Sequence record: PZ386958.1
Origin: a phage
Strand: one strand, 5' to 3'
DNA: 64,000 nt
Positions 27,300 through 54,071 of the stretch are shown here, one piece after another; position 1 is the stretch's first letter; every line of letters starts with the position of its first letter. A program made the position numbers and the translations under genes. The notes under the pieces were generated by a model. It ran no database searches. It was not told the origin of the DNA and was given only the letters and a program-made list of their open reading frames with translations.

Positions 27300-28400
27300 T
27301 TATTCATAATCTCGTATAACTAACCCAACAGGGAACTGTAAAGACCCCTTACGAGTCATCTTCTGGAACTGAACCGTTAAAGGTTTCCCGATAAACTCTT
27401 CAGGATGTTCAGCAAGATACTGTTTCTTCTCGTGTGTAGTTTTCCATGAAACATCTACAAAGACGTTAGGAAGAGTCTCTACAACGAACTTACCATGACC
27501 ACGCTTATCAGTCTTTACACCAGTCACTTTAAACTCTTCAGTGTGCATCTTCTTGTGTTTAATCAAGAAGTATGAACGGTGACAACACTCATAGAAGGAG
27601 TCTTCAGAGATTGAACGGTACATTGCACCTTCAAACTGAGCTTCAACCCACTTATCATGGGCTTCATCAAACTCTTCCCAAGAATTTACACGACGAGACT
27701 TAACAGGAACAACTTTACAGCCGTCTCTGAAGTCATTCAATGGTGAAGTCTCAATAATATCTCTACGCTCAGGCCATGTCTTAGTGCTGTCACAGATATC
27801 GTACCAGTAGAACTGGAGTAGATGTCGGTCTGGATTGTCAGCATTCTTAATCATAGACACAATGTCTTCTAAGTCCCAGCCATGAGCATAAATCTCGCCA
27901 TCAAAGTCTTCAACTTGTGGATGTAATTTAAGCAACAAAAGCAAATCTGGGATTAGTTCTGCTGGAACGTTGTAAACAGTATTCTCACGAGAATAAGCCG
28001 TGAAACTAACTGTATCAGCATCTCTTGAAATTCTACAACGGACACCATCAAGTTTTGGTTGAGCATCAGCAGGAAACTTCAGATACTTTGCATGGCTAAC
28101 CTTTGCAGCATCATGAGCAAGCTGTACACCTACCTTCTCAGTATTCTGTGCAGACTCTTTTGTGTAAGCATAGCCTTTGCGGTCAATTTGCTTTTTATAC
28201 TTAGCAGCAACTTCAAAGAGAGCTTGCTGTTCAGCATTACGCTCATTCTTTTTACCGATGTTTTTAGGTTCTGCTGTGTACTCTTCAAACATCATCTTGC
28301 CATTTTCTTTACCGTAGGTTGTAATAACTTTGTCACCTACAGCAACGCATGACCAGACGTTAAAAGAACCATCTTTATTTTGTTTGTACAGTGTTGTCAT
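27300..28400 (-). CDS. ATP-dependent DNA ligase
   Basis: Adenylation motif I KxDG present as QPKLDGVRC; 366 aa, T7-ligase-like size. Confidence 0.8.
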   Translation of the reverse strand: MTTLYKQNKDGSFNVWSCVAVGDKVITTYGKENGKMMFEEYTAEPKNIGKKNERNAEQQALFEVAAKYKKQIDRKGYAYTKESAQNTEKVGVQLAHDAAKVSHAKYLKFPADAQPKLDGVRCRISRDADTVSFTAYSRENTVYNVPAELIPDLLLLLKLHPQVEDFDGEIYAHGWDLEDIVSMIKNADNPDRHLLQFYWYDICDSTKTWPERRDIIETSPLNDFRDGCKVVPVKSRRVNSWEEFDEAHDKWVEAQFEGAMYRSISEDSFYECCHRSYFLIKHKKMHTEEFKVTGVKTDKRGHGKFVVETLPNVFVDVSWKTTHEKKQYLAEHPEEFIGKPLTVQFQKMTRKGSLQFPVGLVIRDYE

Positions 28401-28603
28401 TTTCTCTTACCACCAATCTCTACGTCGATAACTTGAACATCGCCAGCAACATCAAACTTATGAATGATGCTTTCCACAGTGTAAGTACAACCATCAATGC
28501 GAACCAACTCACCTTCTCGTGGGACGATTGGGTTACGTTGAGCTACGGTTGCAGTGGAGTGAATAACATCATAACAGTAGATATAGTTTACTAGGACTTC
28601 CAT
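28397..28603 (-). CDS. hypothetical protein
   Basis: 68 aa ORF, overlapping start/stop with neighbours. Confidence 0.3.
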   Translation of the reverse strand: MEVLVNYIYCYDVIHSTATVAQRNPIVPREGELVRIDGCTYTVESIIHKFDVAGDVQVIDVEIGGKRK

Positions 28604-28612
28604 AGTTTTCCC

Positions 28613-28846
28613 TTAAAAGACTAAGTCAATATCAATACGTTCACCCTTAAGTACTCCAGTACGGTCTTTTGCAATCTTCCCTTCAACAATAAGAATGTGT
28701 GCAGACCTTAAAGTGTCGCTGTTAAAGGCTTTTACGAACTTGCTAGGCATCACTACAATACACATCTCCTGAATCAACTCTGGAGTATAGCAATTGTCGT
28801 GAAGTTGCTGAATAACGTCTGCAAGTGTCATTTTTGATGTCTCCAA
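28613..28846 (-). CDS. hypothetical protein
   Basis: 77 aa ORF. Confidence 0.3.
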   Translation of the reverse strand: METSKMTLADVIQQLHDNCYTPELIQEMCIVVMPSKFVKAFNSDTLRSAHILIVEGKIAKDRTGVLKGERIDIDLVF

Positions 28847-29037
28847 TATTCAATATCTACAAGTTCTTGTGCAATGCTTTTTAGATTACCTTTCAAGAAA
28901 ACCTTCTCAGAACCTGAAAGAGATGAATTGTCAATTAACCTGTTCATTCTCTCAAACAACTTCTGCTTACGGTTCTTGATAGTTTCCTTTGAAGCACCTT
29001 TCATCATCGCTGCATGGGTTCTTCCACGGTGGCTCAT
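28828..29037 (-). CDS. hypothetical protein
   Basis: 69 aa basic ORF downstream of the polymerase. Confidence 0.3.
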   Translation of the reverse strand: MSHRGRTHAAMMKGASKETIKNRKQKLFERMNRLIDNSSLSGSEKVFLKGNLKSIAQELVDIEYWRHQK

Positions 29038-29098
29038 AAGCCCTCCTATACAAGATATAGTATAAGGTACTCTTCCATGAGCACCTTGTCAATACTAA

Positions 29099-29655: not shown

Positions 29656-29923
29656 CATCTGGTCAATACACTCGCAAGGTGTACCAGTTCTCTTATGAAC
29701 TTCTCCGCATTTCTACGGAGTGTCGGACTATATCACGTAGTAGTAATACTACCGTTGCACTTGGGAATGGTCATTAGCTTACCACCCTACTCTACTCAGT
29801 TCATACATTAAGTATGCTTTTCGATAGTCTCTGAACGTTTCTCTTAAGAGGCTTCGCTGCTGATTACCATATCTTTACAGACTTAGGCTTCCAGCAATTC
29901 ACAACGTTTTACATGCGCCACTG
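29656..29923 (-). ncRNA. group I self-splicing intron (ORF-less, 268 nt) interrupting the DNA polymerase gene
   Basis: 5' exon ends in U; internal guide GCGCAU at intron nt 6-11 pairs with exon AUGCGU (6-bp P1 with U-G at the splice site); P-, Q-, R- and S-like elements AATTGCTGGAA, AATCAGCAGCG, GTTCAGAGACTA, GATATAGTCCGAC in canonical order; terminal G; no ORF. Confidence 0.8.
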
Positions 29924-32066
29924 ACGCATAAATGCCATTTTTGGCTTTCTTACGACCTTTTGTAATCTCGTGGAGAAGTTCCTCATCCTGTGTCTCCCTA
30001 CAACGAACAATATCTTCTTCCTTGTTCAGACCAAAGTAAATACTGTTCAGTGTATGCGCATCAGTCCCTGTGTAGACTTCATAGAGGTCGTTCTCAGCAT
30101 CATAACGAAGATACTTGTCAGTTTCTGGATTAAGATACTTATCGAGATGCTTGCAATAGTATCTGCCATCATCCTGTTTAGTGAACTCTACAAACTCTTT
30201 ACCCTCAGTTACTGCTTTAGTGAACTCTTTATCACCCATAAAGTTACAAAGGAGAACTAGCTGGGCTGAGTTCATATCAACGGAGACTACGTTGGTTCCC
30301 TCCTCACAAATCCAAACCTCCCTCATCGGTGCTCCATAGACAGCAGCACCAGACGGTACGTTTACAATGCCATATTGTGTCATACGTCCAGTTGAAGTAC
30401 CAAACACCATTGCACCAGCACTAAGGCGACCATCAGGACGAATCTGGTTCAACCAACCTTTTTCATCATCCTTTGAGTTCTCAATAGTTCTGCGTCGGTG
30501 CATCAAAGTGTAGTATTTAGCAATCTTCTGTCCAAGCTCACCTTCAATCGTATCATAAGATGATTCAGTAAGTTTTGGTGAAGTACGGATTAAGCAAGGC
30601 TCAAGCAAATCTGTGTATTTCTTCACAGACCAGTTATGCTCAATGTACTGTACACCTTCATGTTCAACATAACTCAAACCACACCGCTCAACCATTTCCT
30701 GCCACTTAGGATGTTTTGTAATCATCTTTTTATTGTCTTTGAAACGACAAACTTTGACAGGACGACCATCTGAGTCTTTCTTGTAGTTCCAGTCATCTGG
30801 AATCCAACCAACTGATTTCAAGTAGTCTTTAACAACGGCTACCTGAGTCATACGAGAAACTTCAAACTCAATTGGTGTATATGGTGCATCAATCAAACCT
30901 GTGTAGCGACTTGACTCAAGTTCAAAGTGGTTAACAACGTGGCTGTTATAGTACTTCACAGTCTTGACTGTTTTTACTGGTTTCCAGTCTTTGCATTTTT
31001 TGCCAATCTTTGCATTCAACTCGTTGCAGATTGCACGAGCATCCTTCATTGCTACAAAGCCTTCCTTGTATTCTTCACCAGTTACAGTGTTGGTTGGCGT
31101 ATAGCAATTCCTTTTTTCAATGTTAAAAATCTTTGTAGTTGGCTTACCAAATGGCTTGATTTCATATGTCTGCATCTCACCGTTACGTACCTGCTGACGA
31201 TACTTTGTCTTAGGGTACTTGGTAATTCTCTTCAGTCCATCTGCGTGACCAAATGCTTCAACATACTCATTCCAAGCTTTTGCAAACTCTTCTCCAGTAA
31301 CTTTACCTTTGGTCTTAATAGTTGGAGGTAGATGTGGTTCAACCTCTGAAGCAAGCTCATTAGTCAACTTGTCAAGTTCCTTTACATGGAACTCCATAAG
31401 CTCTTTATCAGCTTTCCAACCATTGATAGCTTGTTGACTCATCCAGAAAGATGTTTCTTTAGCTCGCATGTAGGTTTCATAAGTGTCTATGCCACACTTC
31501 TTAAGCTTGAGATACTCGTTATCAAGTGCCCGTTTAGTTTTGGCGTTAATACGGATATCTTCTACAACACGAGTGAAGATTTCTGCATTCCACACACCCC
31601 AATGCTCAATCTCTGGCTTACGAACACCAACACGAGCACCCCATGCAGCCAAGCCATGAGCACCTTTATAACCCTTTGGAGTTGGTCTATCCATCCACTG
31701 AACACGAGACTGAATAAGAGAATCCTGAAAGAAATTACTCCACGGCTTACATTTTGGATTATCAAAGTTCCATAAATCAGGTGCAATGTGATTGAAAACC
31801 CACCAGTCATAGCCGAGACCATTATGGATGCAAAGACGTTTTGCCTTTAACGCAAATTCAACACCTTCACGTAAGCCGCCCTTGATGTACTTGGTATACT
31901 TGTGACCGAGGATAGGCTCGTCTGTAAAGACCCATACAGGCGGCTCTTCATCGTCAGATTTATAATCTGCGAAAGCCATTACGTGCACTTTAGTGAACTC
32001 AAGGAGTAAACCATCAGTTTCTGTATCACCAACCAAATGTAAGTTTTTAAAATCTACGTTTTCCAT
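29924..32066 (-). CDS. DNA polymerase (family A, with 3'-5' exonuclease), exon 1
   Basis: Exo I motif DTETDGL; motif A VSVDMNSAQL; proximal motif B RKKAKNGIYA; start taken as the ATG at 32066 (MENVDF) preceded by GAGGGAG. Confidence 0.8.
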
Positions 32067-34373: not shown

Positions 34374-34574
34374 ATGAAGATGAGAGTAAAAGACAATTTT
34401 AAAGTTATTGACCACCGTTTAGTGGAACTCTCATCTCTTTCCAATGAGGTAATGATTGAACGTCTTAAGAGAGTTGAATCACGAAGGAAAGAGATTGCAG
34501 ATGAAATTCATGAACTGGACAAGATTGAAAACGGATTGAAGGCAGAACTACAACGAAGAGGTGCTAATGTCTAA
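34374..34574 (+). CDS. hypothetical coiled-coil protein
   Basis: 66 aa ORF. Confidence 0.3.
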   Translation: MKMRVKDNFKVIDHRLVELSSLSNEVMIERLKRVESRRKEIADEIHELDKIENGLKAELQRRGANV

Positions 34575-36552
34575 AGGTCGTAAATTGAAAGAGGCTGGTC
34601 AGTTTATTGGTCATTGTGCATGTCCACGTTGTGGTTCATCAGATGCTGGTTCAATCTACCACCATGACGATGATTCTTATTCGATGACTTGCTTTAGCTG
34701 TAACAAAGGTTTCCCAGAGTGGGATTTTGATAAAGGACAAATCGTGAGCACTTATTCTACTGGTTCAGATAACAAAAGCCGTACTTTCCGTGGAATGGAT
34801 TTAGACGATGTAAAAGAAAACCTAGAAGCAATGGACTTGAAAGATAGGAAGATTCCTGCAAAAGTCCTTGAACGCTTAGGTATCAAGGTTGACATTGACA
34901 GTGACGGTGAAATTGATGCGCACTTCTATCCAACTTACAAACGTAATGAAGATGGTAAGCTAGAACATGTTGGCTACCGTGTTCGTCACCGTTACCCAGA
35001 AGACCATCCAAAAGAGCACCTACGTGGTAAGCTAAAAGACTTTTCTGGTGGTGTTGGGGACATTAAAGGTGAACTGGCAATGTTCGGTTCATGGATTGCT
35101 CCAGAAGGTGGTAACCGTCTATTCATTTGGGAAGGTGAGATGGAATGTGCGACAGCAATCTATATGACTTCTCTTGCGATTAAGGACAAATCTCGTCGTA
35201 AGAATTACTGTCACGTATCTGTTCCATCAGGTGCAAACATTAAGTCTATCAAAGACAACTATCAGTACATCACATCATTTGACGAGATTTACTTGTGTTT
35301 TGATAACGATGAAGCAGGTGCTAAAGCTACCAAAGAAGCTGCTGGTATCCTACCTATTGAGAAGGTTCGTTTATTCCAGTATCCAGAGGGTGTAAAAGAC
35401 CTTAACGAATGGTGGACAAAGTTTTATAAAGAGAAAGATACAGTTCTGGAAGGATTCAAGCAGCGTATCTACAATGCACCTCGTTACTGCCCTGCTGGTA
35501 TCAAGAACTTTGCAGACGGTTTTGAGGCAATGAAGAATCGTGGTCAGATTCCATTGATTCCTTTCCCAGAATCTTTCGGGGATTTGAACAGACTGACTTA
35601 TGGTGGTTACGGTTTAGGCGAGATTACGACTATTGCAGCACCATCTTCAGTAGGTAAGTCAGCTTACACCCGTGAGATGATTTATTCAGCTTGGAAAGAA
35701 ACTGATTATAATATTGGTGTAATTCCTGTAGAAGATACCTATGAAGAGTTGATGGAGATGCTCTGTGCAATCCACCTTAGCAAGCAGATTTCTGAGATTC
35801 CTTATGATGAACGTGATTGGGATGAATTGAAGGTGGCACACGCAGAGCTATCTAAAGGTCGTCGTATCCATATCGTTGACCATCAAGGGGCAATTGACCA
35901 AGATAACCTGCTGGAGTTTGTTGACTATCTTGTTAATAGTTTAGACTGTAAGATTATTATTCTTGACCCTATTACGTTAGCTCTGTCACGTTCTGATACG
36001 GATGAAGAGGAAGTATTGTCTGAACTATTGCGTCGTTGCAAACGCTACCAGTATGCACAGGTAAACGTCTGTCACGTTCGTAAGAGTGCAGGTGGTCAGA
36101 AAGCTAACTCTGAAGGTGGAGATATCTCTGAAGAGGATATTAAGGGTTCTGGTGCGTATTTCCAGATTTCCATGAACAACATTCTGTTAATGCGTAACAA
36201 GGTTGACCCAGACCCTGTTAAGAAAAACTTGACAAAAATCAAGTTAACTAAGTGTCGTCGTCATGGTAAGTCAACAGGTATTGCTGGTCATACTTGGTAC
36301 AATCCAGACACAGGGCGTCTTATCAAAGCTTCTGGGTGTGGTGTTGACATTGATGGTGCAGCAGAAAATATCCGTCAACAGTTTGGTATTGGTGAAGCTG
36401 AAGACCATTATGACGACTCTTTACCTCATTATGAGGATGAAGTGTTTGACCGTGAGACTGGTGAAGTCTATACTGAAGAACAGCGTCAAAGCTCAATGAT
36501 TCCACCTGTATTAAGCGAGGATGCAGATGACTGCCCATTCGAAACTGAGTGA
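34567..36552 (+). CDS. DNA primase-helicase (T7 gp4-like)
   Basis: Zinc ribbon CPRCGSSD ... CFSCNKG, TOPRIM-like acidic core, Walker A APSSVGKSAY of a DnaB-family helicase; start taken at the ATG at 34567. Confidence 0.8.
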   Translation: MSKGRKLKEAGQFIGHCACPRCGSSDAGSIYHHDDDSYSMTCFSCNKGFPEWDFDKGQIVSTYSTGSDNKSRTFRGMDLDDVKENLEAMDLKDRKIPAKVLERLGIKVDIDSDGEIDAHFYPTYKRNEDGKLEHVGYRVRHRYPEDHPKEHLRGKLKDFSGGVGDIKGELAMFGSWIAPEGGNRLFIWEGEMECATAIYMTSLAIKDKSRRKNYCHVSVPSGANIKSIKDNYQYITSFDEIYLCFDNDEAGAKATKEAAGILPIEKVRLFQYPEGVKDLNEWWTKFYKEKDTVLEGFKQRIYNAPRYCPAGIKNFADGFEAMKNRGQIPLIPFPESFGDLNRLTYGGYGLGEITTIAAPSSVGKSAYTREMIYSAWKETDYNIGVIPVEDTYEELMEMLCAIHLSKQISEIPYDERDWDELKVAHAELSKGRRIHIVDHQGAIDQDNLLEFVDYLVNSLDCKIIILDPITLALSRSDTDEEEVLSELLRRCKRYQYAQVNVCHVRKSAGGQKANSEGGDISEEDIKGSGAYFQISMNNILLMRNKVDPDPVKKNLTKIKLTKCRRHGKSTGIAGHTWYNPDTGRLIKASGCGVDIDGAAENIRQQFGIGEAEDHYDDSLPHYEDEVFDRETGEVYTEEQRQSSMIPPVLSEDADDCPFETE

Positions 36553-36990: not shown

Positions 36991-37026
36991 TGGTACTCTT
37001 CATAAATTGAGATAGAGGTTTAAATA

Positions 37027-37884
37027 ATGTCTAAAGTTGTTAAAATGAAAGCTCCGGTAGAGAAGTACAATGGTACTGAACGTCAAACTCTGCGTTACCT
37101 TCTGAAAGATGTTTGGTTTTATTACCTGAACACTTCACCACGTCCGGGAAAAGGTAAATCCATTGACAAGAAATTCCCAGGCAAAGACTGTAACTACAGT
37201 GTTTCAATTCTGGCAGAAGATGGTAATAAACTATTTAAAGAGTTTACTAAGTCTAAGAAAAACCCAGAAGGTTGGGATAAAGTTACTACTGAAGCAGTTG
37301 ATGCAGATGACTTCGAAGAGAAGTTTGGTTGCAAACCACCATTTGAAGCAGACACTTACTACATCTTGAAAGTAAGTCGTGCAGCAGCTTATAAGGATGG
37401 TGCTGTGTGGACAGCTAAACAGTCATTCCCTGTAATGCTGATTGAAGAAGTAAATGGTAAGCGTGTAGCTGTTAAACAGCCGATGAAGAAAATCAAAGCT
37501 CAAGCATCTGATAAACATGAAGATGACAAGAACTATGATGTAATTCATCCAGATATTGCAGTTGGTAACGGTTCTTTCGGTAGTGTGATTCTCTCTACTC
37601 ACTTCTACACTTTTGAGAACAATGTTCTGACAAAACCTATTCAGGAACAGTTTATCATTGACACTCTTGTACCTTACACTGGTGGTAACGGTGCTAATGG
37701 TGAACCTGAACTGGATGAAGATGAACTGGCTATGCTTGGTCTTGATGGTGTTGAAGATAACGGTGAAATCACTGAAGAAGATGCAAAAGACCACAAACCT
37801 TCGAATGATTCTGATGATGGTGACGATGAAGACTTGCCAGACCCAGACGACGAAGAAGATGAAGACTTCGATACAGAAGACTAA
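37027..37884 (+). CDS. single-stranded DNA-binding protein (T7 gp2.5-like)
   Basis: 285 aa with extremely acidic C-terminal tail (DDGDDEDLPDPDDEEDEDFDTED); position between primase-helicase and exonuclease. Confidence 0.6.
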   Translation: MSKVVKMKAPVEKYNGTERQTLRYLLKDVWFYYLNTSPRPGKGKSIDKKFPGKDCNYSVSILAEDGNKLFKEFTKSKKNPEGWDKVTTEAVDADDFEEKFGCKPPFEADTYYILKVSRAAAYKDGAVWTAKQSFPVMLIEEVNGKRVAVKQPMKKIKAQASDKHEDDKNYDVIHPDIAVGNGSFGSVILSTHFYTFENNVLTKPIQEQFIIDTLVPYTGGNGANGEPELDEDELAMLGLDGVEDNGEITEEDAKDHKPSNDSDDGDDEDLPDPDDEEDEDFDTED

Positions 37885-37901
37885 TCTTTAAAAGTTACTT
37901 T

Positions 37902-37930
37902 AAAGCCCTGTACTTAGTATGGGGCTTTTT
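37902..37930 (+). terminator. rho-independent terminator
   Basis: AAAGCCC ... GGGCTTT stem followed by TTTTT. Confidence 0.5.
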
Positions 37931-37946
37931 CATATGGAGAGCCACA

Positions 37947-38993
37947 ATGGAGAAGTACACGCTAACAAAACTTCCCGATTCAGTTACACATGTCTTTATT
38001 GACTCTGATAGTATTGCCTATAAAGGTGCTTGTGTAGTTGAGAAAGCAAAATATAAGTATGTCAATAAACTCACAGCAGAAGAATCTGAACCATTTGATA
38101 ATGCAAAAGATGCCGCAAGATGGTTAGCAGACCAGAGAATCCTTGTAGAAGAGCTTGGCCTAGCATTTGATGAAGATGAATGGGAAAGACAGACTTGGAA
38201 AGAAGCTAAGAGTGAAAAAGAAGCTATCATGGCTACTCAGCAGGTTCTTCAGGAATGGCTTAAGGTTGTTGGTAAAGAAAGAACTTGGGTAGGTTATTTA
38301 ACAGAGAAGGGTGTGCATAAACATAAAGACATTAAAGGTCTTGAGCACCAATATCAAGGTAACCGTAAAGATGCCGTCACACCAACACACTTAGTCGCTT
38401 GTCGTGAATACCTTCTGTCAAGACCAGAGTTTAAGCTGATTCTTGATGGATTTGAAGCTGACTCTATCGTAATTGCTAAAGCTGAAAAGATGGGTAAAAA
38501 GGCTGCCTTAATGAGTATTGATAAAGACCTTCGACAAGCTGAAGGTACTTACTGCATTGATATGACCTATGAAAAATCACCTTTAATTTTTATTGCTGAT
38601 AACAACGTTGGTGAAATTTGGGATTGCCCAATAAAATCGACACCAAAAGCTAAGAAGACAGTTGGGGTAGGTTTTAAATTTCTTTGTTATCAAGCTGTGT
38701 CTGGTGATAATGCAGATAACTATTTTGGTTTAAAGGGCGTTGGTAAGGTTGCTGTAATGAAAGCCCTTGAGGGTAAAACCACTTACAAAGAGTGTCTTGA
38801 TGCAATTTATGAGCTTTATGCTAAGAAAGAGTCATACACTTATGTCTCGTGGGATGGTCAAACAATTACCAGAACACCCTTAGAGCTAATGCAGCAACAT
38901 TTCTGGATAGCTTATCAGGAAAGAAATAAGAAAGATGATTTCACTTTTGATAAGTATGGGTGGACACCAAATGTTAACTCAACAAACTCTTAA
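37947..38993 (+). CDS. 5'-3' exonuclease (T7 gp6 / FEN-like)
   Basis: Acidic-cluster pattern typical of FEN/5'-3' exonucleases (FIDSDSIAYKG, ILDGFEADSIV, MSIDKDLRQ, VSGDNADNYFGLKGVGKV). Confidence 0.6.
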   Translation: MEKYTLTKLPDSVTHVFIDSDSIAYKGACVVEKAKYKYVNKLTAEESEPFDNAKDAARWLADQRILVEELGLAFDEDEWERQTWKEAKSEKEAIMATQQVLQEWLKVVGKERTWVGYLTEKGVHKHKDIKGLEHQYQGNRKDAVTPTHLVACREYLLSRPEFKLILDGFEADSIVIAKAEKMGKKAALMSIDKDLRQAEGTYCIDMTYEKSPLIFIADNNVGEIWDCPIKSTPKAKKTVGVGFKFLCYQAVSGDNADNYFGLKGVGKVAVMKALEGKTTYKECLDAIYELYAKKESYTYVSWDGQTITRTPLELMQQHFWIAYQERNKKDDFTFDKYGWTPNVNSTNS

Positions 38994-39471
38994 AGAGTAC
39001 CTACACTATGACCCCGAAACAGGGGTCTTTACTTGGTTAGTTGATAGAAAAGGTAAGGCCAAAGCTGGTTCAGTGGCAGGTGTTAAACACCATAGTGGTT
39101 ATATCTATATAAAACTCCTCGGAAAAAGATATGGAGCACACAGGCTGGCCTTCTTATACATGAAAGGCTACCTCCCAAAATTTGTTGACCATAAGAATTG
39201 TATCAGGTATGACAACTGGTTCGACAATTTGAGAGAATGTAGCAGGTCAGATAATAACTGTAATGCAGTCAAAAGAAGGGATAATAAGTCTGGCGTGAAG
39301 GGTGTATACTACCACAAGCTAACAGGTAGGTGGGCTGCACAAGTTAAGCATAATAAGGTTTGCTATCATCTAGGTCTGTTTGACTCTGTTGCTGATGCTG
39401 AATCAGTTGTCAAAAAGAAAAGAGAAGAACTACATAAAGAGTTTTCAAATCACGGAGAAGCTTATGAATGA
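38971..39471 (+). CDS. HNH homing endonuclease with AP2-like DNA-binding region
   Basis: YDPETGVFTW, KRYGAHRLAF, VDHKNC, DNLREC, SGVKGVYY, ELHKEF; paralogous to 51784..52275; start taken at the ATG at 38971. Confidence 0.7.
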   Translation: MLTQQTLKEYLHYDPETGVFTWLVDRKGKAKAGSVAGVKHHSGYIYIKLLGKRYGAHRLAFLYMKGYLPKFVDHKNCIRYDNWFDNLRECSRSDNNCNAVKRRDNKSGVKGVYYHKLTGRWAAQVKHNKVCYHLGLFDSVADAESVVKKKREELHKEFSNHGEAYE

Positions 39472-39965
39472 AGATTAAAGGATTTGGTAATTGCCCCACC
39501 TATGGTCATTGGGTATCTTTATGTGGGGAAGTTGACCCCACTAAACATTTTGGTTTTGTCTATTTAGTACACTGTAAGAAAACCGGACAATACTATATCG
39601 GAAAGAAACAGCTTAATAGTGTGACCAAAAGAAAAGTTGCTGGCAAGACTCGGAAGAAGGTAGTCACTAAGGAAAGTGATTGGATGACTTATGAGACTTC
39701 TTCTGAGTATATTAAAAAAGATATTGAGAGCTTTGGAAAAGAATTTTTTGACTTTTACATTATTCAGACCTACTACACAAAAGGTGGTCTAGTTTATGGT
39801 GAAGCAAACCTTCAACATAAGTTCGATGTAATGACAAAAAGGATTGACTCGAAGCTCAGACTCTTCTACAATGCCAATATTGCAGCAATTAAGTTTATTA
39901 CTAAAGAAACTTATGAAGATGCTGAAAAAAGAATCCATAAGGTAATGAAAGCAAATTGTACTTGA
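39468..39965 (+). CDS. GIY-YIG family endonuclease (putative)
   Basis: GFVYLVHCKKTGQYYIGKK fits the GIY-(10 aa)-YIG spacing; free-standing next to an HNH gene. Confidence 0.5.
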   Translation: MKIKGFGNCPTYGHWVSLCGEVDPTKHFGFVYLVHCKKTGQYYIGKKQLNSVTKRKVAGKTRKKVVTKESDWMTYETSSEYIKKDIESFGKEFFDFYIIQTYYTKGGLVYGEANLQHKFDVMTKRIDSKLRLFYNANIAAIKFITKETYEDAEKRIHKVMKANCT

Positions 39966-39986
39966 CAACTATTGAGAGAGAATAAA

Positions 39987-40235
39987 ATGTTTAACAAAAG
40001 TAAAGCTGTGAGTCATGTAGCAAAGGTTGACAGCAAGATTGAAGAACTTGAGCGCATTCTTGCAAATGCCAGAGAGTCAATAATTAAAGAGGTTGAAGCT
40101 GTTGAATCTCAAATGCAGCACCTAATGCTTAAACGTCAAGAACTACGTGAGCATCTAGAATATATTGAAACACGAGAGCTAAAGGTTAACAAATATTTTA
40201 AGGAGTCCGAATGTTTAACTCAAGAGAATCAGTAA
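39987..40235 (+). CDS. hypothetical coiled-coil protein
   Basis: ATG at 39987 (MFNKSK) chosen over the upstream TTG listed in the ORF track. Confidence 0.3.
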   Translation: MFNKSKAVSHVAKVDSKIEELERILANARESIIKEVEAVESQMQHLMLKRQELREHLEYIETRELKVNKYFKESECLTQENQ

Positions 40236-40966
40236 AAAACTGGAACCTGCGTTGTGGAAACACTCAAAAGCAACCTTACAGTAATGAGTATTGGGAATCT
40301 TTAAAATCTCAATCTCTGTGTATGCTTGAAGAAGCAAAAGAGCTTGTAAAAGCAATTGAAGAGAAAGACCCCATTGAGACACTGGATGCTCAGGCAGATT
40401 TGCAATATGTTCTTGACGGCTTGATTTATCTGTCACAACATGACCATAACGGTGCTATGAAAGCTGTTTGCCATAATAATGACCTGAAGTACACAGATGA
40501 CTATGAAGAAGCTTTAAAACGTCTTGCAGACATTGAAAAGCGTACTGGTCAAGAGTGTATTATCAGGATGTCAGTAGTTGACGGTAAAGAGTGGTATGCG
40601 ATTGTTCGTGCAGCCGATGGGAAGACTATGAAGCAATCAAATCTACCTAAAGTACAGCTTGGTGAATACATTGTAGAACTTGAAAGCCAAGAACTTTTTG
40701 TGGTAGTATCTGAGACATGCGTTATCTGCAAAGGTATTGTAGGTAGCTTAAAGGATTTGGGTGTAGATGGTTTTGTAGAAGTTAATCCAATTACCTCTAA
40801 AGCAGATAAAGACTTCTGTAAAGAGAACGGACTATGGATTGCAGATATTGTCTACTATGATGGTGAGCAGTTCCATGTAACCTCATACCCGAAACTGAAT
40901 TATGATGCTAATAACCTGAAGTGCTGGTTAAAAGGGGTTGGTTATAATGGATTCACAGAACATTAA
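40211..40966 (+). CDS. MazG-like nucleotide pyrophosphohydrolase domain protein (putative)
   Basis: N-terminal EExxE ... ExxD arrangement (LEEAKELVKAIEEKDPIETLDAQADLQYVLDGLIYL); C-terminal ~150 aa unassigned. Confidence 0.4.
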   Translation: MFNSRESVKNWNLRCGNTQKQPYSNEYWESLKSQSLCMLEEAKELVKAIEEKDPIETLDAQADLQYVLDGLIYLSQHDHNGAMKAVCHNNDLKYTDDYEEALKRLADIEKRTGQECIIRMSVVDGKEWYAIVRAADGKTMKQSNLPKVQLGEYIVELESQELFVVVSETCVICKGIVGSLKDLGVDGFVEVNPITSKADKDFCKENGLWIADIVYYDGEQFHVTSYPKLNYDANNLKCWLKGVGYNGFTEH

Positions 40967-41270
40967 TAAAGAGGGTGTGGCTCAGAAGAGCCACTTCTCA
41001 AACTACAATATCTCTATGACGGTGTTTATGAATGACCCGTTACTTGAGAAGTATGGTGAGACTCCAGATACACTTCTGGACAATGAACAAGTTTTAAAAG
41101 CAGTTCTGTACAAATACGGGATTGATATTGAGAAAGAGTATTCTTTTGAAATCTGTCAACACAGGAATACTTTTGGTAAAGTTGTGATGGCTCCACTTTT
41201 TATGGGTGTAGAAAGGACTGACTACGGTTGGTTATATCTAAAAAGAAACTTGGAGAAATACCGTGTTTAA
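40938..41270 (+). CDS. hypothetical protein
   Basis: 110 aa ORF. Confidence 0.3.
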   Translation: MVIMDSQNINKEGVAQKSHFSNYNISMTVFMNDPLLEKYGETPDTLLDNEQVLKAVLYKYGIDIEKEYSFEICQHRNTFGKVVMAPLFMGVERTDYGWLYLKRNLEKYRV

Positions 41271-41598
41271 AGCAAAGAAGTTAGATTACGATGCCATTAT
41301 CTCTGGTGCTAAATTAGGTGTTGACAGTCTCGGACGGGACGTTAAACACGGAGACACAGTTATGTACTGTGATGACCGAAGAGGAAGAAGTTCAATCTTG
41401 TTTGGAAAAGTTGTATGTAAAATACGCGGTAATTATGTTGTTTCAGATATGGATGGCAACGTCGCACAAAAGCTCAAAATAATCATGGATAGCAAGACTC
41501 CATCATGGCTCTTAAATTGTATGCACGCTTCGTCTATCACAAAAGTAAGTGATAAGTTTTACGATATGTGGCAGAATGAGCAAATTTTCAAGATTTAA
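41263..41598 (+). CDS. hypothetical protein
   Basis: 111 aa ORF followed by a terminator. Confidence 0.3.
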   Translation: MFKAKKLDYDAIISGAKLGVDSLGRDVKHGDTVMYCDDRRGRSSILFGKVVCKIRGNYVVSDMDGNVAQKLKIIMDSKTPSWLLNCMHASSITKVSDKFYDMWQNEQIFKI

Positions 41599-41603
41599 AC
41601 TAG

Positions 41604-41629
41604 GGAGCCTCTTCGGAGGCTCTTTTCAT
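41604..41629 (+). terminator. rho-independent terminator
   Basis: GGGAGCCTC TTCG GAGGCTC stem with UUCG tetraloop, then TTTTC. Confidence 0.6.
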
Positions 41630-41644
41630 CTGTAGGATTCGAAA

Positions 41645-43879
41645 ATGATTAAGACAATTAAAAAATCAAATGGTACAGTAGTAAGCTTTGACCCAGAAAG
41701 ACTGAATAAGTGGGCATCATGGGCAGATAAACGTGGAATTATCTGGTCAGAAGTCACTATGGAAGCTATGAAACGTGTCTATGAGGGTTGCACTACAAAA
41801 GAGATGCACCAAGCCATGATTGATGTTTGTGTTGATAAACAAACTCAAGAGTACTCAGATATGGCTGGACGACTGCTTTTGGGTATTATCTACAAAGAAG
41901 CCTTTGGAGGCTTTACTAAGGTTCCTACGCTGATTACCTTCGTTAAAAATATGGAGAGAGCAGGACTTTGGGAGAAGATGGATTATTCACAGGAAGAGCT
42001 TGAATACCTGCAAGGTTACATCGTGCACTCAAAAGATATCTCTTACGGTTATGCAGTCCTGAAACAGTTCAGAGACAAGTATGGTATCCGTGATATTAAA
42101 ACGGGAAGACTTTTTGAGTCACCACAATTTATGTTTATGGGTATGGCTATGAAAGCCTTTGAGAAGCAACCAAAGCACCGTAGACTGCAAGATGTTATCA
42201 AGCTGTACACTTACCTATCTGACCTGAAGATTAATGCTCCTACGCCTTATCTGAATGGTTTAAGAGCTACTAAATCAGGTTATGCGTCATGCTGTTTGAT
42301 TAAAGCGAATGATACCGCTGAATCACTTGGTATTGCTGCAAAGGTTGCTTATGATATGACTACAAAGCAAGCTGGTATTGGTATGCTGATGGAGACTCGT
42401 ACTATTGGTGATGGTATCCGTCAAAACACTATTGAGCACATGGGTAAGCTACCTTATTATAAGCTTGTACGTTCATCTGTAGAGGCAAATAAACAGAAGA
42501 GTCGTGGTGGTTCAGCTAATAACTTCTACACTGCTCTAGACCCGCAGATTGAAGATTTACTGCGTTTGAAGCACCCTACAACGGTTCCTTCTAAACGTAT
42601 TAACGAGATGGACTACTCATTCGGTACAAACGATTATTTCTGGCAGTGTGTTCAGTATGATACAGATTGGTTGCTATTCTCTTACAAAGATGCACCAAAA
42701 CTTTATGATATGTTCTACACCGCATCTGCCGATGAGTTTGCTATGGCAGTTGGTCACGCAGTACATTCTGGTGTTAAACACAGACGAGTAAAGGCTCGTG
42801 AAATTGCTAAACTGTTTATCCAGCAACGTTATGCAACAGGTCGTGTGTATCCATTCTTCACAAATAATGCAAACACACATACACCATTTAAAGAACCTTT
42901 GAAGATGTCAAATCTTTGTATGGAAATTGTGTTGCCAGTGTACGGCTTTGAGAAGGAGACAGACCTTTACAGAGATGATGCTGTGAAAGAGGATGGTGAG
43001 GTGGCTCTTTGCTTCCTAGCTAGTTTGGTTGCAGGGAGAATTTCAGAAGATGAATACGCTGACGTTGCTTATTATGCTCTGGCAATGGTTGATTCCGTTA
43101 TTGACCTTATGGATTATCCGTATCCGTCGATGCGTAACCATGTTCAGAAGCGTCGCTCTGTTGGCATTGGCCTTACAAATGTGGCTCATTACCTTGCGAA
43201 AAACTACGTGAACTATTCTTCAAGAGCAGGTAAGACAAAGCTTCACGAACTTGCAGAGATGCACTCTTACTATCTGCATGAAGCTTCTTTAAGACTTGCT
43301 AAAGAACGTGGTGTACCTGAGTATATGCAGTTCACTAAGTACCCTGAAGGCTGGGTTCCTCCGAAGACAGCTAACAAGAAGATTGATGAAAAGCATGATG
43401 CAAAACTACGATATGATTGGGATGACTTAGCACAACGTATCAAAGAAAATGGTGGAATCCGAAACTCTGTATTAGAGGCTTACATGCCTAATGAGAGTTC
43501 TTCACTAGCAACTAATACGACAAATGGCTTGTACCCAATTCGTGACTTTATTTTAACTAAAAAGTCTGCAACTGGTAACGTGCTGTTTATTGTTCCAGAT
43601 TATGAAGAGTTGAAGTATGTCTATGAAATTGCTTGGGATATCAACACCTTTGATATGATTGATTGTTATGCAATTGTTCAAAAGTTCACTGGTCAAGCTA
43701 TCTCTTCGGATTTCTATGTTGACTATGCAAAGTCTAAGAAGGTATCATTGGCTCAAGCTCTGAAGTACATGATTTATGCCAACTCGGTAGGTATGAAAAC
43801 CATGTACTACCTTAACAGTCGCATTGGTGTAGGCAAATCTGCACTGCAAGATGCTTATTGCGAGGGTTGTGGTGTTTAG
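41645..43879 (+). CDS. nrdA: ribonucleotide reductase class Ia large subunit
   Basis: Active-site region SNLCMEIVLP and C-terminal Cys pair YCEGCGV; 744 aa. Confidence 0.85.
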   Translation: MIKTIKKSNGTVVSFDPERLNKWASWADKRGIIWSEVTMEAMKRVYEGCTTKEMHQAMIDVCVDKQTQEYSDMAGRLLLGIIYKEAFGGFTKVPTLITFVKNMERAGLWEKMDYSQEELEYLQGYIVHSKDISYGYAVLKQFRDKYGIRDIKTGRLFESPQFMFMGMAMKAFEKQPKHRRLQDVIKLYTYLSDLKINAPTPYLNGLRATKSGYASCCLIKANDTAESLGIAAKVAYDMTTKQAGIGMLMETRTIGDGIRQNTIEHMGKLPYYKLVRSSVEANKQKSRGGSANNFYTALDPQIEDLLRLKHPTTVPSKRINEMDYSFGTNDYFWQCVQYDTDWLLFSYKDAPKLYDMFYTASADEFAMAVGHAVHSGVKHRRVKAREIAKLFIQQRYATGRVYPFFTNNANTHTPFKEPLKMSNLCMEIVLPVYGFEKETDLYRDDAVKEDGEVALCFLASLVAGRISEDEYADVAYYALAMVDSVIDLMDYPYPSMRNHVQKRRSVGIGLTNVAHYLAKNYVNYSSRAGKTKLHELAEMHSYYLHEASLRLAKERGVPEYMQFTKYPEGWVPPKTANKKIDEKHDAKLRYDWDDLAQRIKENGGIRNSVLEAYMPNESSSLATNTTNGLYPIRDFILTKKSATGNVLFIVPDYEELKYVYEIAWDINTFDMIDCYAIVQKFTGQAISSDFYVDYAKSKKVSLAQALKYMIYANSVGMKTMYYLNSRIGVGKSALQDAYCEGCGV

Positions 43880-50095: not shown

Positions 50096-50611
50096 ATGTA
50101 TCTGTCAAACCTGAAACGTTCGGCTGCAATGTCAGTTCTAAGACTCAGTTTTGAGGAACGTCAAGAGTTCATTGACTCCCACCAATACGACCCTTCTAAC
50201 TCAAATCACATGATTCTTTGGAATCGTGATAACTTCCGTGAAAGAGCACTTGTCCGTTATTACCCACACTACACAATAGACAACCTGTATGAATGGTGTG
50301 TCGTGAAGAACACTATTGCAACACTGAACAATCTTTGCAGGTATACAGGTAAGCAAACATTCACACTAGGCCATCATAAACCTGTTACAAAAGGTGGTGA
50401 GCATCACTGTGCGAACTGGTTTATCCAAACTAAAGCTGATAACCAGAAGCAAGGAGATAACCTCCTAAGCACTCCTAAGATGACCTATGAAGAGCAAGAG
50501 AAATATATCAAAAATAATATGCCAGATGTGCTTGACAACAACTATACAGATTTGGCAATATCTCTCCTGTTGAAGTTCGAGACAGTTTATAGGGCAACTT
50601 ACAATGGCTAA
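50096..50611 (+). CDS. HNH nuclease domain protein (putative)
   Basis: GHHKPVTKGGEHHCANWFIQTKADNQKQGDN resembles an HNH core (HH ... N ... N). Confidence 0.4.
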   Translation: MYLSNLKRSAAMSVLRLSFEERQEFIDSHQYDPSNSNHMILWNRDNFRERALVRYYPHYTIDNLYEWCVVKNTIATLNNLCRYTGKQTFTLGHHKPVTKGGEHHCANWFIQTKADNQKQGDNLLSTPKMTYEEQEKYIKNNMPDVLDNNYTDLAISLLLKFETVYRATYNG

Positions 50612-50882
50612 AGAGAAGTGGGAGATTTTACCACTAGTCAGTGAGGGTGGGAATGGTTGTGAAATGTACATAATACGTGGTCATGTTCCAGAACCAATTG
50701 CACTTGAGATGATAAACAATTTTACAGATGGTTCTTACAAAGATTTAGGAGAGCCAACTATAAAGCATCAATGGGTCAAACCTGTACCAGACAGCACAGG
50801 TAACTGTAGTGTACTTTATCACGTTGTAGACCCTGCAAAATGCAAATCTGCAATGGCAGTAACAAACATAACCTTTGATTGA
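50604..50882 (+). CDS. hypothetical protein
   Basis: 92 aa ORF translationally coupled to the Prs-like gene. Confidence 0.3.
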   Translation: MAKEKWEILPLVSEGGNGCEMYIIRGHVPEPIALEMINNFTDGSYKDLGEPTIKHQWVKPVPDSTGNCSVLYHVVDPAKCKSAMAVTNITFD

Positions 50883-51775
50883 GAGAGAAAACTATGAAAA
50901 CTGTTATTGAAGTCGTTGTCACCGCACAAGAGAAATTCTTCCACACAGAAAAATTTAATATCATCCAATTCCCATCTGGAGAAATTGGTGGAAACTTCTC
51001 TGAAGATTTTGTTAAGTTTACTGAGCGTAATGCTGGTAAGGTTGACAATGTTATACTTACTGTGCAGGGATATGATAAAGATACACTGTTTGCATTAGCT
51101 TTGGCTAAGGATGCCGTTGACAGTCTTGTCCCACATAAATCAGCGATGAAAACCGTTGTTTTCGGGTTCTTACCGAATGCTCGATATGACCGACATATGT
51201 TCAAAGGTGATTCAGCAGCACTGAAAGCTTTTGCCAACCTCGTTAATGCAATGGGCTTTGATGCAGTATGTGCTCTTGACCCTCACAGTAATGTTGCAGA
51301 AAACTTATTTAAGTGCTTTCAGAGCATGAAGCAAAAAGATGTGGCAGTACACTTTGCAAGTGACCCGCGCATTGATTTCTTGGTAGCCCCAGATGCAGGT
51401 GCAGCTAAGAAGACTGAAGAGACTGCTAAAGAGGTGGATAAACCATACATCACAATGACTAAAATGCGTAACCTTAAGACTGGTGAAATTACTGGTATGC
51501 GAATCCTTGATGATGTTGATTTGACCGATAAAACTGTTATGATTCTCGACGATATCTGTGATGGTGGTCGAACCTTCATAGAAGCAGCTAAACATCTTCG
51601 TGAAGCAGGTGCAAAACGTGTGGAACTCTATGTAACTCATGGCATTTTCTCTAAAGGTGTTGAAAGCTTACTTGACAATGGCATTGACCATATCTACACT
51701 ACAAACACTTTAGGTGAAGCTAAAGACCGTGGCTTAACACATTATGGCCAAGTTACTGTAGCAACCATTGATTAG
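50879..51775 (+). CDS. ribose-phosphate pyrophosphokinase homologue (PRPP synthetase fold; possibly an ADPR-pyrophosphate synthetase)
   Basis: Prs-like architecture with PRPP-binding loop MILDDICDGGRTF and an upstream ARYDRH / DPHS region; 298 aa. Confidence 0.75.
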   Translation: MREKTMKTVIEVVVTAQEKFFHTEKFNIIQFPSGEIGGNFSEDFVKFTERNAGKVDNVILTVQGYDKDTLFALALAKDAVDSLVPHKSAMKTVVFGFLPNARYDRHMFKGDSAALKAFANLVNAMGFDAVCALDPHSNVAENLFKCFQSMKQKDVAVHFASDPRIDFLVAPDAGAAKKTEETAKEVDKPYITMTKMRNLKTGEITGMRILDDVDLTDKTVMILDDICDGGRTFIEAAKHLREAGAKRVELYVTHGIFSKGVESLLDNGIDHIYTTNTLGEAKDRGLTHYGQVTVATID

Positions 51776-51783
51776 GTAACAGT

Positions 51784-52275
51784 ATGAATAAGGGTTATTT
51801 TGAAAAATACCTAATATATGAACCAGATACAGGTTTATTAATTTGGAGAGTAACCCTTTGCAGTACCGCTATTGCTGGTAATGTGGCTGGCACAAGGTCT
51901 AAGAAGGGTTATATCCAAGTCCAGATAAATAAGAAGAGGTACTATGCACATAATATTGCATGGATTATGTCTGGAGGTGAGATACCAAGTGGATATGAGG
52001 TAGACCACATAGACCTTGATAAAGCTAATAATAAGTTGGAGAACTTAAGACTTAGCACAAAGTCACAAAATCAGAGGAATAGAGGTATATACAAGAATAA
52101 TAAAACTGGTGTGAAGGGTGTAAGTTTTTGTAAACAAACAGGTCTTTACAAAGCAAGAGTCATGCTTTACCATAAAGAATACTTTTGTGGAAGATTTAAA
52201 ACGGTAGAAGAAGCAAAAGAAGCTGTAATTAAAAAGCGAATAGAACTTCATGGTGAGTTTGCAAGACATAACTAA
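51784..52275 (+). CDS. HNH homing endonuclease with AP2-like DNA-binding region
   Basis: YEPDTGLLIW, KRYYAHNIAW, VDHIDLDKANNKLENLR, TGVKGVSF, ELHGEF; paralogue of 38971..39471; inserted between the Prs-like and Nampt-like genes. Confidence 0.7.
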   Translation: MNKGYFEKYLIYEPDTGLLIWRVTLCSTAIAGNVAGTRSKKGYIQVQINKKRYYAHNIAWIMSGGEIPSGYEVDHIDLDKANNKLENLRLSTKSQNQRNRGIYKNNKTGVKGVSFCKQTGLYKARVMLYHKEYFCGRFKTVEEAKEAVIKKRIELHGEFARHN

Positions 52276-52289
52276 GAGAGAGATAAAAT

Positions 52290-54071
52290 ATGAGTAAGTC
52301 ACTTTACGCAGTACCAGCAGGTCTTAATGCAGATGCTTACAAGGCATCACATATATATCAGTATCCAGATGCTACGCAATATCTTATGTTGAACCTGACA
52401 CCACGTAGTGACAAATGGTTTAACAGTCCCTTAGCAATTGATGGTGTAGTGGCTTTTGGTATTCAACGTTTTGTTAAAGATTACTTGATAGACCACTGGA
52501 ATACCACCTTCTTTGAACGTGACAAAAAAGAAGCAATTGACGAAATCTTAGAAGTCATGAATGGTGTTCTGGGTAAAGATGCTATTGGTCGAGAACATTG
52601 GGAAGCACTTCACGACTTAGGTTATCTACCAGTTGAAGTATACGCTGTAGAAGAAGGCACAGTTGTCCCTATGCGTGTACCAATGATTGTCTTCCAGAAC
52701 ACTGTTTCGGGTTTCCATTGGGTAGCGGGGTATCTGGAAGATGCTTTCTCTGCTGAGATTTGGAAGGCTTGTACCATTGCAACTATTGCATTGCACTACA
52801 AACGTATCTGTAAGAAGTGGGCTGACCTTACTTGTGACAACGCCTTACATTTACCTTACCAGTGCCATGACTTTGCCATGCGTGGTATGTCTGGCTTTAC
52901 TGATGACGCATTTAACGCTGTAGGTCACTTAACCAGCTTTAAAGGGACTGATAGCTTCCCTGCTGTGTATACAGCTAAACGCATCTATGGACAGTCCTAC
53001 CCAATCTCTGATATTGGTAGTTCTGTACCAGCCACTGAACACTCTGTAATGTGTGCAAACATTGCTTGGGAAGGTGGTAACGAGTTGATTGAAGAAGAAA
53101 GACGCTTTAAAGGTGAGTTACAAACCTTCCGTCGTTTCTTAACAGAGACTTACCCGACTGGTATTGCAAGTGTTGTTTCAGACACTTATAACTTCTGGAG
53201 AACTGTATCAGTCATATTACCAGAACTCCGTAAAGAGATTATGGAACGTGATGGAAAACTGGTAATTCGTCCTGACTCTGGAGACCCTGTACATATTGTC
53301 ACAGGCTATAAAGCAATCCACTTAGAGTGTGCTAAAAAGGCTTATTACGAACACCTAAGCAAGCTGGAAGCCAGCGACACAATGTTGAATGCTGTTCTGA
53401 ACATGAAGCTTGAAAACATCAATTATGGTATTGCTGGATGGCTATTGTCAGAAGGCTACGAAATGGTTGTTGACAGAGAAGACTTTGAAGTTGCTGATAC
53501 AGTGCTGTTGAAAAATGCTTATATGGTTGGTTCTGCAAACGTTGTAACACGTCCTGTAGCGGAGATTGATGGAGCTATCAAGACACTGTATAACATCTTT
53601 GGAGGAACTATCAACGCTAAAGGTTTTAAAGTACTGGATGAGCATATCGGACTTATTTATGGTGACTCTATCACGTTGGAACGTGCAAACGAAATCCTGA
53701 AGCGTTTGTATGAAATGGGTTTTGCAAGCTCTAACGTAGTGTTTGGTGTAGGTTCTTACACTTACCAGTACATGACTCGTGACACCTTTGCATTTGCTGT
53801 CAAAGCAACTCTTGCAAGCATTGGTGGTAAAGAGATTATGCTTGCAAAAGACCCTAAAACAGATAGCGGTGTTAAGAAGTCTGCTTTTGGTGGTGTAGCA
53901 CCTATGTGGGATGGTGATAAACTGAAAGCTGTAGATGGCTATGGATTCCAGAGCTTTGCAGATGTGCTTGAACATCCAGCTTGTGCTTTACGTTTAGTCT
54001 TTAGCGACTCTGAGCAGTTCGGTTACACAACTCTTGGTGATATTCGAAATAATATTGACAAGCAACTTTAA
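52290..54071 (+). CDS. nicotinamide phosphoribosyltransferase family protein (Nampt/NadV-like)
   Basis: Nampt signatures DAYKASHIYQYP, LHDFAMRGMSG, FKGTDSFPAV, SVPATEHSVM, VVSDTYNFW, VIRPDSGDPV; 593 aa. Confidence 0.8.
   Translation: MSKSLYAVPAGLNADAYKASHIYQYPDATQYLMLNLTPRSDKWFNSPLAIDGVVAFGIQRFVKDYLIDHWNTTFFERDKKEAIDEILEVMNGVLGKDAIGREHWEALHDLGYLPVEVYAVEEGTVVPMRVPMIVFQNTVSGFHWVAGYLEDAFSAEIWKACTIATIALHYKRICKKWADLTCDNALHLPYQCHDFAMRGMSGFTDDAFNAVGHLTSFKGTDSFPAVYTAKRIYGQSYPISDIGSSVPATEHSVMCANIAWEGGNELIEEERRFKGELQTFRRFLTETYPTGIASVVSDTYNFWRTVSVILPELRKEIMERDGKLVIRPDSGDPVHIVTGYKAIHLECAKKAYYEHLSKLEASDTMLNAVLNMKLENINYGIAGWLLSEGYEMVVDREDFEVADTVLLKNAYMVGSANVVTRPVAEIDGAIKTLYNIFGGTINAKGFKVLDEHIGLIYGDSITLERANEILKRLYEMGFASSNVVFGVGSYTYQYMTRDTFAFAVKATLASIGGKEIMLAKDPKTDSGVKKSAFGGVAPMWDGDKLKAVDGYGFQSFADVLEHPACALRLVFSDSEQFGYTTLGDIRNNIDKQL

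Follow-up and report, generated by a model that had tools for sequence, protein, structure and literature searches.

Two endonuclease-like open reading frames (ORFs) lie in tandem directly after the 5′–3′ exonuclease gene of a Felixounavirus (Ounavirinae), ~95% identical to Felix O1, in the 64,000-nucleotide (nt) stretch of phage record PZ386958.1 that was analysed as a whole (the window). ORF A encodes an HNH-AP2 protein and ORF B a GIY-YIG protein. Comparison with related phages separates the two genes: we consider it likely that ORF A is a free-standing homing endonuclease carried on an optional cassette, and that ORF B is a fixed, non-mobile nuclease.

An earlier note, made from the letters of the window, had described the tandem HNH-AP2 and GIY-YIG genes after the exonuclease and their start/stop overlaps, and the ORF coordinates and the Pfam and PHROG families agree with that description. 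Labels of HNH and GIY-YIG homing endonucleases are already attached to both ORFs in dozens of GenBank relatives, and the finding in that form is known. The present analysis contributes a separation of the two genes, a landing site defined exactly together with its series of alleles, and an invariant palindrome inside ORF A.

An optional HNH-AP2 cassette at the exonuclease/GIY junction

The features at the junction are as follows.

37947..38993, + strand: T7 gp6-like 5′–3′ exonuclease (weak Pfam 5_3_exonuc matches; annotated as exodeoxyribonuclease in relatives)
38376..38963, no strand: divergent mosaic left flank, the 3′ part of the exonuclease gene
38964..39454, + strand: HNH cassette of 491 nt, inserted where TGG meets GAG at the ancestral exonuclease/GIY junction; absent in empty-site relatives
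38971..39471, + strand: ORF A, HNH(HNN)-AP2, 166 amino acids (aa); allele 1, Felix O1 type
39454..39467, + strand: 3′ end of the cassette, where the GGAG ribosome-binding site for ORF B and its spacing are re-created; the ATGA stop/start overlap comes next
39468..39965, + strand: ORF B, SegE-type GIY-YIG, 165 aa
39473..39672, no strand: divergent right flank, the 5′ part of the GIY-YIG gene

ORF A and the exonuclease ORF have 23 nt in common, and the TGA stop codon of ORF A (39469–39471) overlaps the ATG start codon of ORF B (39468–39470) as ATGA. Megablast with positions 37000..42000 matched 259 phage records, nearly all of them Felix O1-like myoviruses at 90–95% identity. Record counts given here come from the GenBank phage set, and IMG/VR provided 32 informative loci; about 40 loci were compared at the level of the locus, and the other figures are summary counts.

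The earlier note had proposed a search for endonuclease-free alleles among relatives. For the HNH-AP2 gene such empty sites turned out to be the majority, and the insertion site is fixed to the nucleotide. In a sensitive blastn search with 38000..41000, the matched span in many relatives was 2509–2510 nt versus 3001 nt, and alignments with phage JLBYU32 and 20 other empty-site loci placed the edges of the cassette; Alf5 is another phage with an empty site. With a slash marking the point of insertion, the empty site of JLBYU32 reads ...AAATATAATTGG/GAGCCTTGTATGAATGAAG, and the occupied site of the window reads TGG/ACACCAAATG...AATCACG/GAGAAGCTTATGAATG; the empty exonuclease/GIY junction contains ...AAATATAATTGGGAGCCGTGTATGAATG.... 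Neither direct nor inverted repeats flank the cassette beyond short ones expected by chance, and transposon-like ends were rejected on these grounds.

The ORF B gene was found by nucleotide search in 298 GenBank phage records, at one place in each. At its 5′ side, 43 records carry allele 1 (ORF A, Felix O1 type), 28 carry allele 2 (wV8/Moogle type) and 21 carry allele 3 (VpaE1/Sf14 type), so that about two-thirds of the enterobacterial Ounavirinae have an empty site. Alleles 2 and 3 share ~55% amino-acid identity with ORF A and lie at exactly the same site; at least three HNH-AP2 alleles thus alternate at a single position. Among the 32 IMG/VR loci, 20 are empty, 4 have allele 1 and 8 have other alleles. 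Every outgroup (the Erwinia Kolesnikvirus phages, one Hafnia phage and two contigs that are more distant) has an empty site at which the exonuclease stop codon overlaps the next start codon, and insertion is therefore the derived state.

The cassette supplies substitutes for the ends that it displaces. In JLBYU32, the exonuclease gene runs on as far as a TAA, with an overlap of 11 nt with the start of the ORF B homologue. In the window, the last ~10 exonuclease codons come from the cassette (...KYGWTPNVNSTNS before the stop codon, versus ...KYNWEPCMNED in empty-site phages), and the C terminus WTPNVNSTNS replaces WEPCMNED. ORF A has a Shine–Dalgarno sequence of its own (GGTGG, read from the sequence, 7 nt 5′ of its ATG), and at the downstream edge the GGAG of ORF B is rebuilt at the same distance from the ATG as in the empty junction (empty, TGGGAGCCGTGTATGAATG; occupied, CACGGAGAAGCTTATGAATG). 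Given the substitute exonuclease C terminus, the separate ribosome-binding site and the rebuilt GGAG, insertion should be nearly neutral for the expression of both neighbouring genes. Sigma-70-like sites are not enriched (11 versus 10.1 expected), which gives no indication of a promoter belonging to the HNH or the GIY gene.

The sequences on either side of the cassette are mosaic. In sliding windows, identity to some relatives falls to 72–84% over the final ~600 nt of the exonuclease gene, against a background of ~96%, and the first 100 nt of ORF B are 77–79% identical to Felix O1-type haplotypes versus 95–99% to others. The flank haplotypes assort independently of the HNH state: both exonuclease haplotypes are represented among the empty sites, and two different 5′ haplotypes of ORF B accompany allele 1. 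Alleles 1 and 2 are near-identical in their first ~70 nt and last ~90 nt, with ~50% identity in the middle. Gene conversion of the flanks, replacement of one allele by another and occasional decay fit the footprints expected of a free-standing homing endonuclease gene. The candidate for decay is the copy in Salmonella phage Si3 (the IMG/VR copy, L025, ~2521..2560), in which a 1-nt deletion (GACCCGAAACAGGGGTC) frameshifts the HNH gene; the gene may be decaying there, as fits the life cycle of homing endonucleases, or the deletion may be a sequencing error in a homopolymer.

The protein itself belongs to a family of this kind. ORF A matches Pfam HNH_3 (E = 1.2e-11, 44.5 bits, cut-off 24.8) and, over its full length, PHROG phrog_99 'HNH endonuclease' (E = 1e-73); PADLOC returned only the generic 'HEase'. 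The catalytic D-H...N...N motif (VDH, DN, NL..DN) is kept in all HNH-AP2 alleles. The ratio of nonsynonymous to synonymous substitution (dN/dS), calculated with a Nei–Gojobori script, is ~0.11, indicating purifying selection, and hence the gene is still functional.

The likely course of events, were ORF A a homing endonuclease, can be outlined. In a mixed infection, the HNH enzyme would cut or nick the empty allele near the exonuclease/GIY junction, and repair from the HNH-carrying genome would then transfer the cassette along with short stretches on either side. Transfer of this sort would account for the patchy distribution as well as for the divergent, mosaic flanks, and the HNH-AP2 alleles could replace one another by recombination within their common 5′ and 3′ ends.

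Several features of ORF A are shared with free-standing HNH genes known from other phages (T4 MobE, the T5 hegs, the HNN-AP2 genes of the Xanthomonas phages Xp10 and Xop411, and those of Felix O1): an ORF of ~165 aa between essential genes, an HNH_3 domain followed by a putative AP2 domain, presence and absence in close relatives, and several paralogues per genome. The ORF A site differs from these in having at least three diverged alleles at a nucleotide-exact position, with an invariant 18-nt palindrome in common. Six copies of HNH homing endonucleases have been counted in the Felix O1 genome (PMC3185647), and HNN-AP2 genes are scattered and decaying in Xanthomonas phages, including Xoo phages (PMC2248197); a passage of PMC4237383 that refers to Magnani 2004 relates the HNH-AP2 proteins of 'Felix 01' to plant AP2 domains. 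We regard the Felixounavirus HNH-AP2 copies as putative homing endonucleases. Homing endonuclease genes have been found at recombination boundaries beside essential genes in ICP1 and other phages (Barth, Dunham & Seed 2023, PMC10055350), and ORF A resembles them in lying next to essential genes at a breakpoint of mosaic haplotypes, with alleles that are alike at their ends and differ in the centre. The ICP1 genes encode T5orf172 and IPA-HNH proteins, whereas ORF A belongs to another endonuclease family and another group of phages. The exonuclease/GIY junction is a landing site that is exact to the nucleotide and has been used repeatedly, and it exists in nature in both empty and occupied form, which makes Felixounaviruses convenient for tests of HNH-AP2 homing.

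ORF B, a GIY-YIG gene fixed in the lineage

ORF B matches the Pfam family SegE_GIY-YIG (PF19835; E = 9.4e-28, 97 bits) with a domain that spans residues 21–138, and no other Pfam family; it has no separate C-terminal DNA-binding module (NUMOD3, zinc finger or helix-turn-helix). Across 13 homologues, down to 48% identity, there is no variation at Y32 (GIY), Y43 (YIG), E112 or N135, and next to none at R62.

The earlier note had treated ORF B, too, as a mobile homing gene, and had itself named universal carriage at identical positions, with no endonuclease-free allele, as a ground against that claim. This is the pattern found. ORF B is single-copy and at an identical position, after the exonuclease or after the exonuclease plus the HNH gene, in 298 of 298 related records, Erwinia phages included, and no empty ORF B allele occurs among them. 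It diverges together with the exonuclease, though in Erwinia phages it is the better conserved of the two (62% versus 53% amino-acid identity), and purifying selection on it is equally strong (dN/dS 0.01–0.05, versus 0.03–0.07 for the exonuclease). By these comparisons, ORF B is a core gene of the Ounavirinae that is not mobile in the lineage.

A tblastn search found ORF B at 819 places in 816 phage records, and a profile search of 1.8 billion representative proteins gave 2,266 relatives in two length classes, one of ~135–180 aa with the domain only and one of ~230–390 aa. A NUMOD3 or helix-turn-helix module follows the GIY-YIG domain in all ten of the long relatives scanned (267–393 aa). Short homologues are near-universal and single-copy in T4-like cyanophages, and in Roseobacter phage CRP-7 the homologue lies inside the replication module.

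ORF B shares the catalytic domain family of the Seg/I-TevI-type GIY-YIG enzymes (T4 SegE; PF19835), with conserved GIY, YIG, R, E and N residues, and I-TevI is its best structural match. It differs from them in that linker and C-terminal DNA-binding module are missing and in that the gene is neither sporadically distributed nor present in several copies. Like T4 endonuclease II (DenA; PDB 2wsh), a single-domain phage nuclease with a housekeeping role, it is a small, lone GIY-YIG domain that is encoded among nucleotide-metabolism genes and fixed in its lineage. Traits of a housekeeping-type GIY-YIG enzyme are present in ORF B: a catalytic domain alone, fixation in the lineage, and neighbours concerned with DNA metabolism (the exonuclease, the MazG-like gene and nrdA). 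It is probably a domesticated nuclease reduced to the catalytic domain. Ancestrally, ORF B would have been coupled in translation to the exonuclease, and its product would most likely act alongside that enzyme as a general or structure-specific DNase, for example in the breakdown of host DNA or on recombination intermediates, a role that we infer.

The names that ORF B homologues bear in databases are varied. 'NAD synthetase', which stands on many records (for example, L112 2872..3357), looks like a misannotation that has spread; it derives from phrog_447 and from gene cluster 213 of T4-like cyanophages, and the function was rejected for ORF B, the sequence of which is a GIY-YIG domain. Erwinia phage Omen names its homologue 'HNH homing endonuclease'. 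For ORF B and its more than 800 phage homologues, 'GIY-YIG homing endonuclease' and 'NAD synthetase' are probably both wrong.

A palindrome within ORF A, and competing explanations

Near its start, ORF A contains a perfect palindrome.

39010..39027, + strand: palindrome GACCCCGAAACAGGGGTC, ORF A codons 14–19 (D-P-E-T-G-V), with a 6-bp stem and a 6-nt loop; an example of synonymous recoding is GATCCAGAAACTGGTGTT

It is the sole C4N6G4 sequence in the window, where 0.08 are expected by chance, and it lies 17–50 nt past the stop codon of the essential gene upstream. The palindrome is identical in all alleles at the exonuclease site, apart from the Si3 copy, in which the 1-nt deletion falls inside it, and also in three further HNH-AP2 lineages that lie directly 3′ of the DNA polymerase gene in other Felixounaviruses. 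When the codons of 10 genes from 6 lineages (35–55% amino-acid identity, 2 genomic sites) are aligned, a single codon is used at each of the six consecutive palindrome positions, and 25 of the 26 other invariant columns with degenerate amino acids use at least two codons. The encoded peptide does not force the palindrome: 108 unrelated viral genes with the peptide YDPETGV[L/F]TW spell it with 77 different 18-mers, none of them the palindrome, and all 21 Ounavirinae genes with this peptide carry the identical 18-mer. The palindrome is absent from the second HNH-AP2 gene of the window (51784..52275).

We therefore put forward, as a tentative proposal that we judge nearly as likely to hold as to fail, that the palindrome is a cis-acting element under direct nucleotide selection across the HNH-AP2 lineages of the Ounavirinae, with ORF B a domesticated descendant of a Seg-type gene. 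The element may be an operator for the AP2 domain of the enzyme itself, or an RNA hairpin or attenuator, and may control the expression or the mobility of the HNH-AP2 gene. For the AP2 domains of HNH-AP2 enzymes, binding to poly(G)/poly(C) is reported in a passage of PMC6781369 that cites Magnani 2004. As the palindrome is completely invariant, covariation cannot separate a hairpin from a DNA site. It is the only terminator-like match in 37800..41700, with a weak tail (TTTACTTGGT) and a count that is not above the shuffled expectation, and the local fold z-score at the palindrome is -0.98. We found no description of the 18-nt palindrome in the papers that we read. If functional, it would be a new instance of regulation from within the coding sequence of a selfish nuclease gene.

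Four points weigh against the joint reading of ORF A as a homing endonuclease and ORF B as a domesticated nuclease. The AP2 match of ORF A (E = 7e-6, 26.7 bits) is under the Pfam gathering cut-off of 33.3. The homing activity of the HNH enzyme, and its target, are inferred from distribution only. Repeated precise deletion could in principle also explain the presence and absence of the cassette, but the outgroups speak against it. Fixation of ORF B is in principle no proof of domestication, as an ancient homing gene that had swept to fixation would also be universal; such a gene fits less well, because decay would be expected of it and the dN/dS of ORF B is 0.01–0.05.

Other explanations assign the two genes different roles. 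The HNH-AP2 gene could be a non-homing accessory gene, acting in the cutting of competitor genomes (marker exclusion) or as an AP2 regulator, with its patchiness the outcome of ordinary recombinational gain and loss. Purifying selection on ORF A (dN/dS ~0.11) is compatible with this, as are allele ends conserved enough to permit plain homologous exchange and the occurrence of a C4N6G4 palindrome in the gene's own sequence alongside the poly(G)/poly(C) binding related for AP2 in PMC6781369. We nevertheless consider it unlikely, because the D-H...N...N catalytic motif is retained in every allele, because alleles and paralogues sit at junctions beside essential genes (the exonuclease, the DNA polymerase and prs/nadV) in a manner typical of homing endonucleases, and because the pattern of flank divergence fits homing. 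That both ORFs are active free-standing homing endonucleases, which arrived independently and now stand in tandem, is suggested by the abundance of such enzymes in both families, by the 'GIY-YIG homing endonuclease' label that ORF B often bears in GenBank, and by the classical nuclease plus NUMOD3 architecture of its longer relatives. The absence of an empty ORF B allele in 298 records, synteny that extends to Erwinia phages, a single copy without a DNA-binding tail and a dN/dS like that of core genes make this quite improbable. Finally, the two products might form a two-component nuclease in which the AP2 protein recognizes DNA for the tail-less GIY-YIG protein, given that the genes are adjacent with an ATGA overlap and that ORF A has a putative AP2 domain whereas ORF B has no DNA-binding module. 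We give this next to no weight and rule it out on distribution: most phages with ORF B have no HNH gene at the site, homologues of ORF B stand alone in Erwinia phages and cyanophages, and the ancestral coupling partner of ORF B is the exonuclease rather than the HNH gene.

HNH relatives, the polymerase intron and neighbouring genes

Elsewhere in the window are a second HNH-AP2 gene, an ORF with an HNH-like motif and an intron.

51784..52275, + strand: paralogous HNH-AP2 gene between prs and nadV, without the palindrome
50096..50611, + strand: ORF with an HNH-like motif (GHHKP..GG..N..N); weak HNH assignment
29656..29925, − strand: group I intron without an ORF, which splits the DNA polymerase gene; 270 extra nt relative to the intronless polymerase of SP22

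The ORF at 51784..52275 is a paralogue of ORF A with exactly the motif blocks that the earlier note had listed (39% identity over 157 aa, E = 2e-34), including the SGVKGV...W.A motif common to both. The note had left the origin of the pair between duplication and independent homing events; a recent duplication does not hold at 39% identity and with a paralogue that lacks the palindrome, and independent insertions of old family members are the better explanation. A tblastn search of the window found no HNH-AP2 copy beyond these two and no second GIY-YIG copy. The paralogue is likewise present or absent among relatives, with ~470 nt between prs and nadV missing in many records. In the interval 50879..54071, it lies among genes of NAD salvage, after the PRPP synthetase gene and before a 593-aa gene annotated as nicotinamide phosphoribosyltransferase in relatives. 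Both HNH-AP2 sites are junctions of two conserved genes, in this case two conserved metabolic genes.

The third HNH-like ORF of the earlier note, at 50096..50611, finds weak support in a partial match to phrog_2214 'HNH endonuclease' (E = 1.8e-6); its full-length match is to a family of unknown function, and Pfam, NCBIfam, PDB and PADLOC lend the assignment no support. None of the four ORFs searched has an NCBIfam match, and PDB sequence searches with ORF A, ORF B and the ORF at 50096 returned nothing meaningful.

The polymerase intron, which the earlier note had contrasted with the endonuclease genes as carrying none, is indeed ORF-less and matches Rfam RF00028 (29703..29986, minus strand, 63 bits). 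That contrast is incomplete, as relatives have a free-standing HNH-AP2 gene directly 3′ of the polymerase. In SP22, an intronless polymerase is followed by such a gene right after its stop codon; BPS17W1 and warpig have both intron and HNH gene; and the window has the intron only, with an empty HNH site at ~29092/29098. Exon 2 of the polymerase is 82.6% identical to SP22 versus 91–95% in the flanks. The pattern resembles 'collaborative' or trans homing, in which an endonuclease encoded nearby mobilizes an intron that has no ORF. Between the DNA polymerase and DNA ligase genes (28396..29098), ~410 nt of small ORFs present in SP22 (L088 2960..3371) are missing, which marks another variable patch beside an endonuclease landing site. 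For Felix O1, by contrast, the genome paper reports an absence of introns (PMC3185647).

The + strand genes around ORF A and ORF B form a T7-like module of replication and nucleotide metabolism, which comprises, besides the genes listed above, the following.

34561..36552, + strand: primase/helicase
between primase/helicase and exonuclease, + strand: 285-aa protein
between ORF B and the MazG-like gene, + strand: small coiled-coil ORF
40211..40966, + strand: MazG-like pyrophosphatase
41645..43879, + strand: nrdA

Among the best or near-best nucleotide matches to the region are records named for other hosts, MG065664 and MG065668 ('Campylobacter phage A132/A126') and GU169904 ('Staphylococcus phage SA1'), which are probably contaminated, chimeric or mislabelled.

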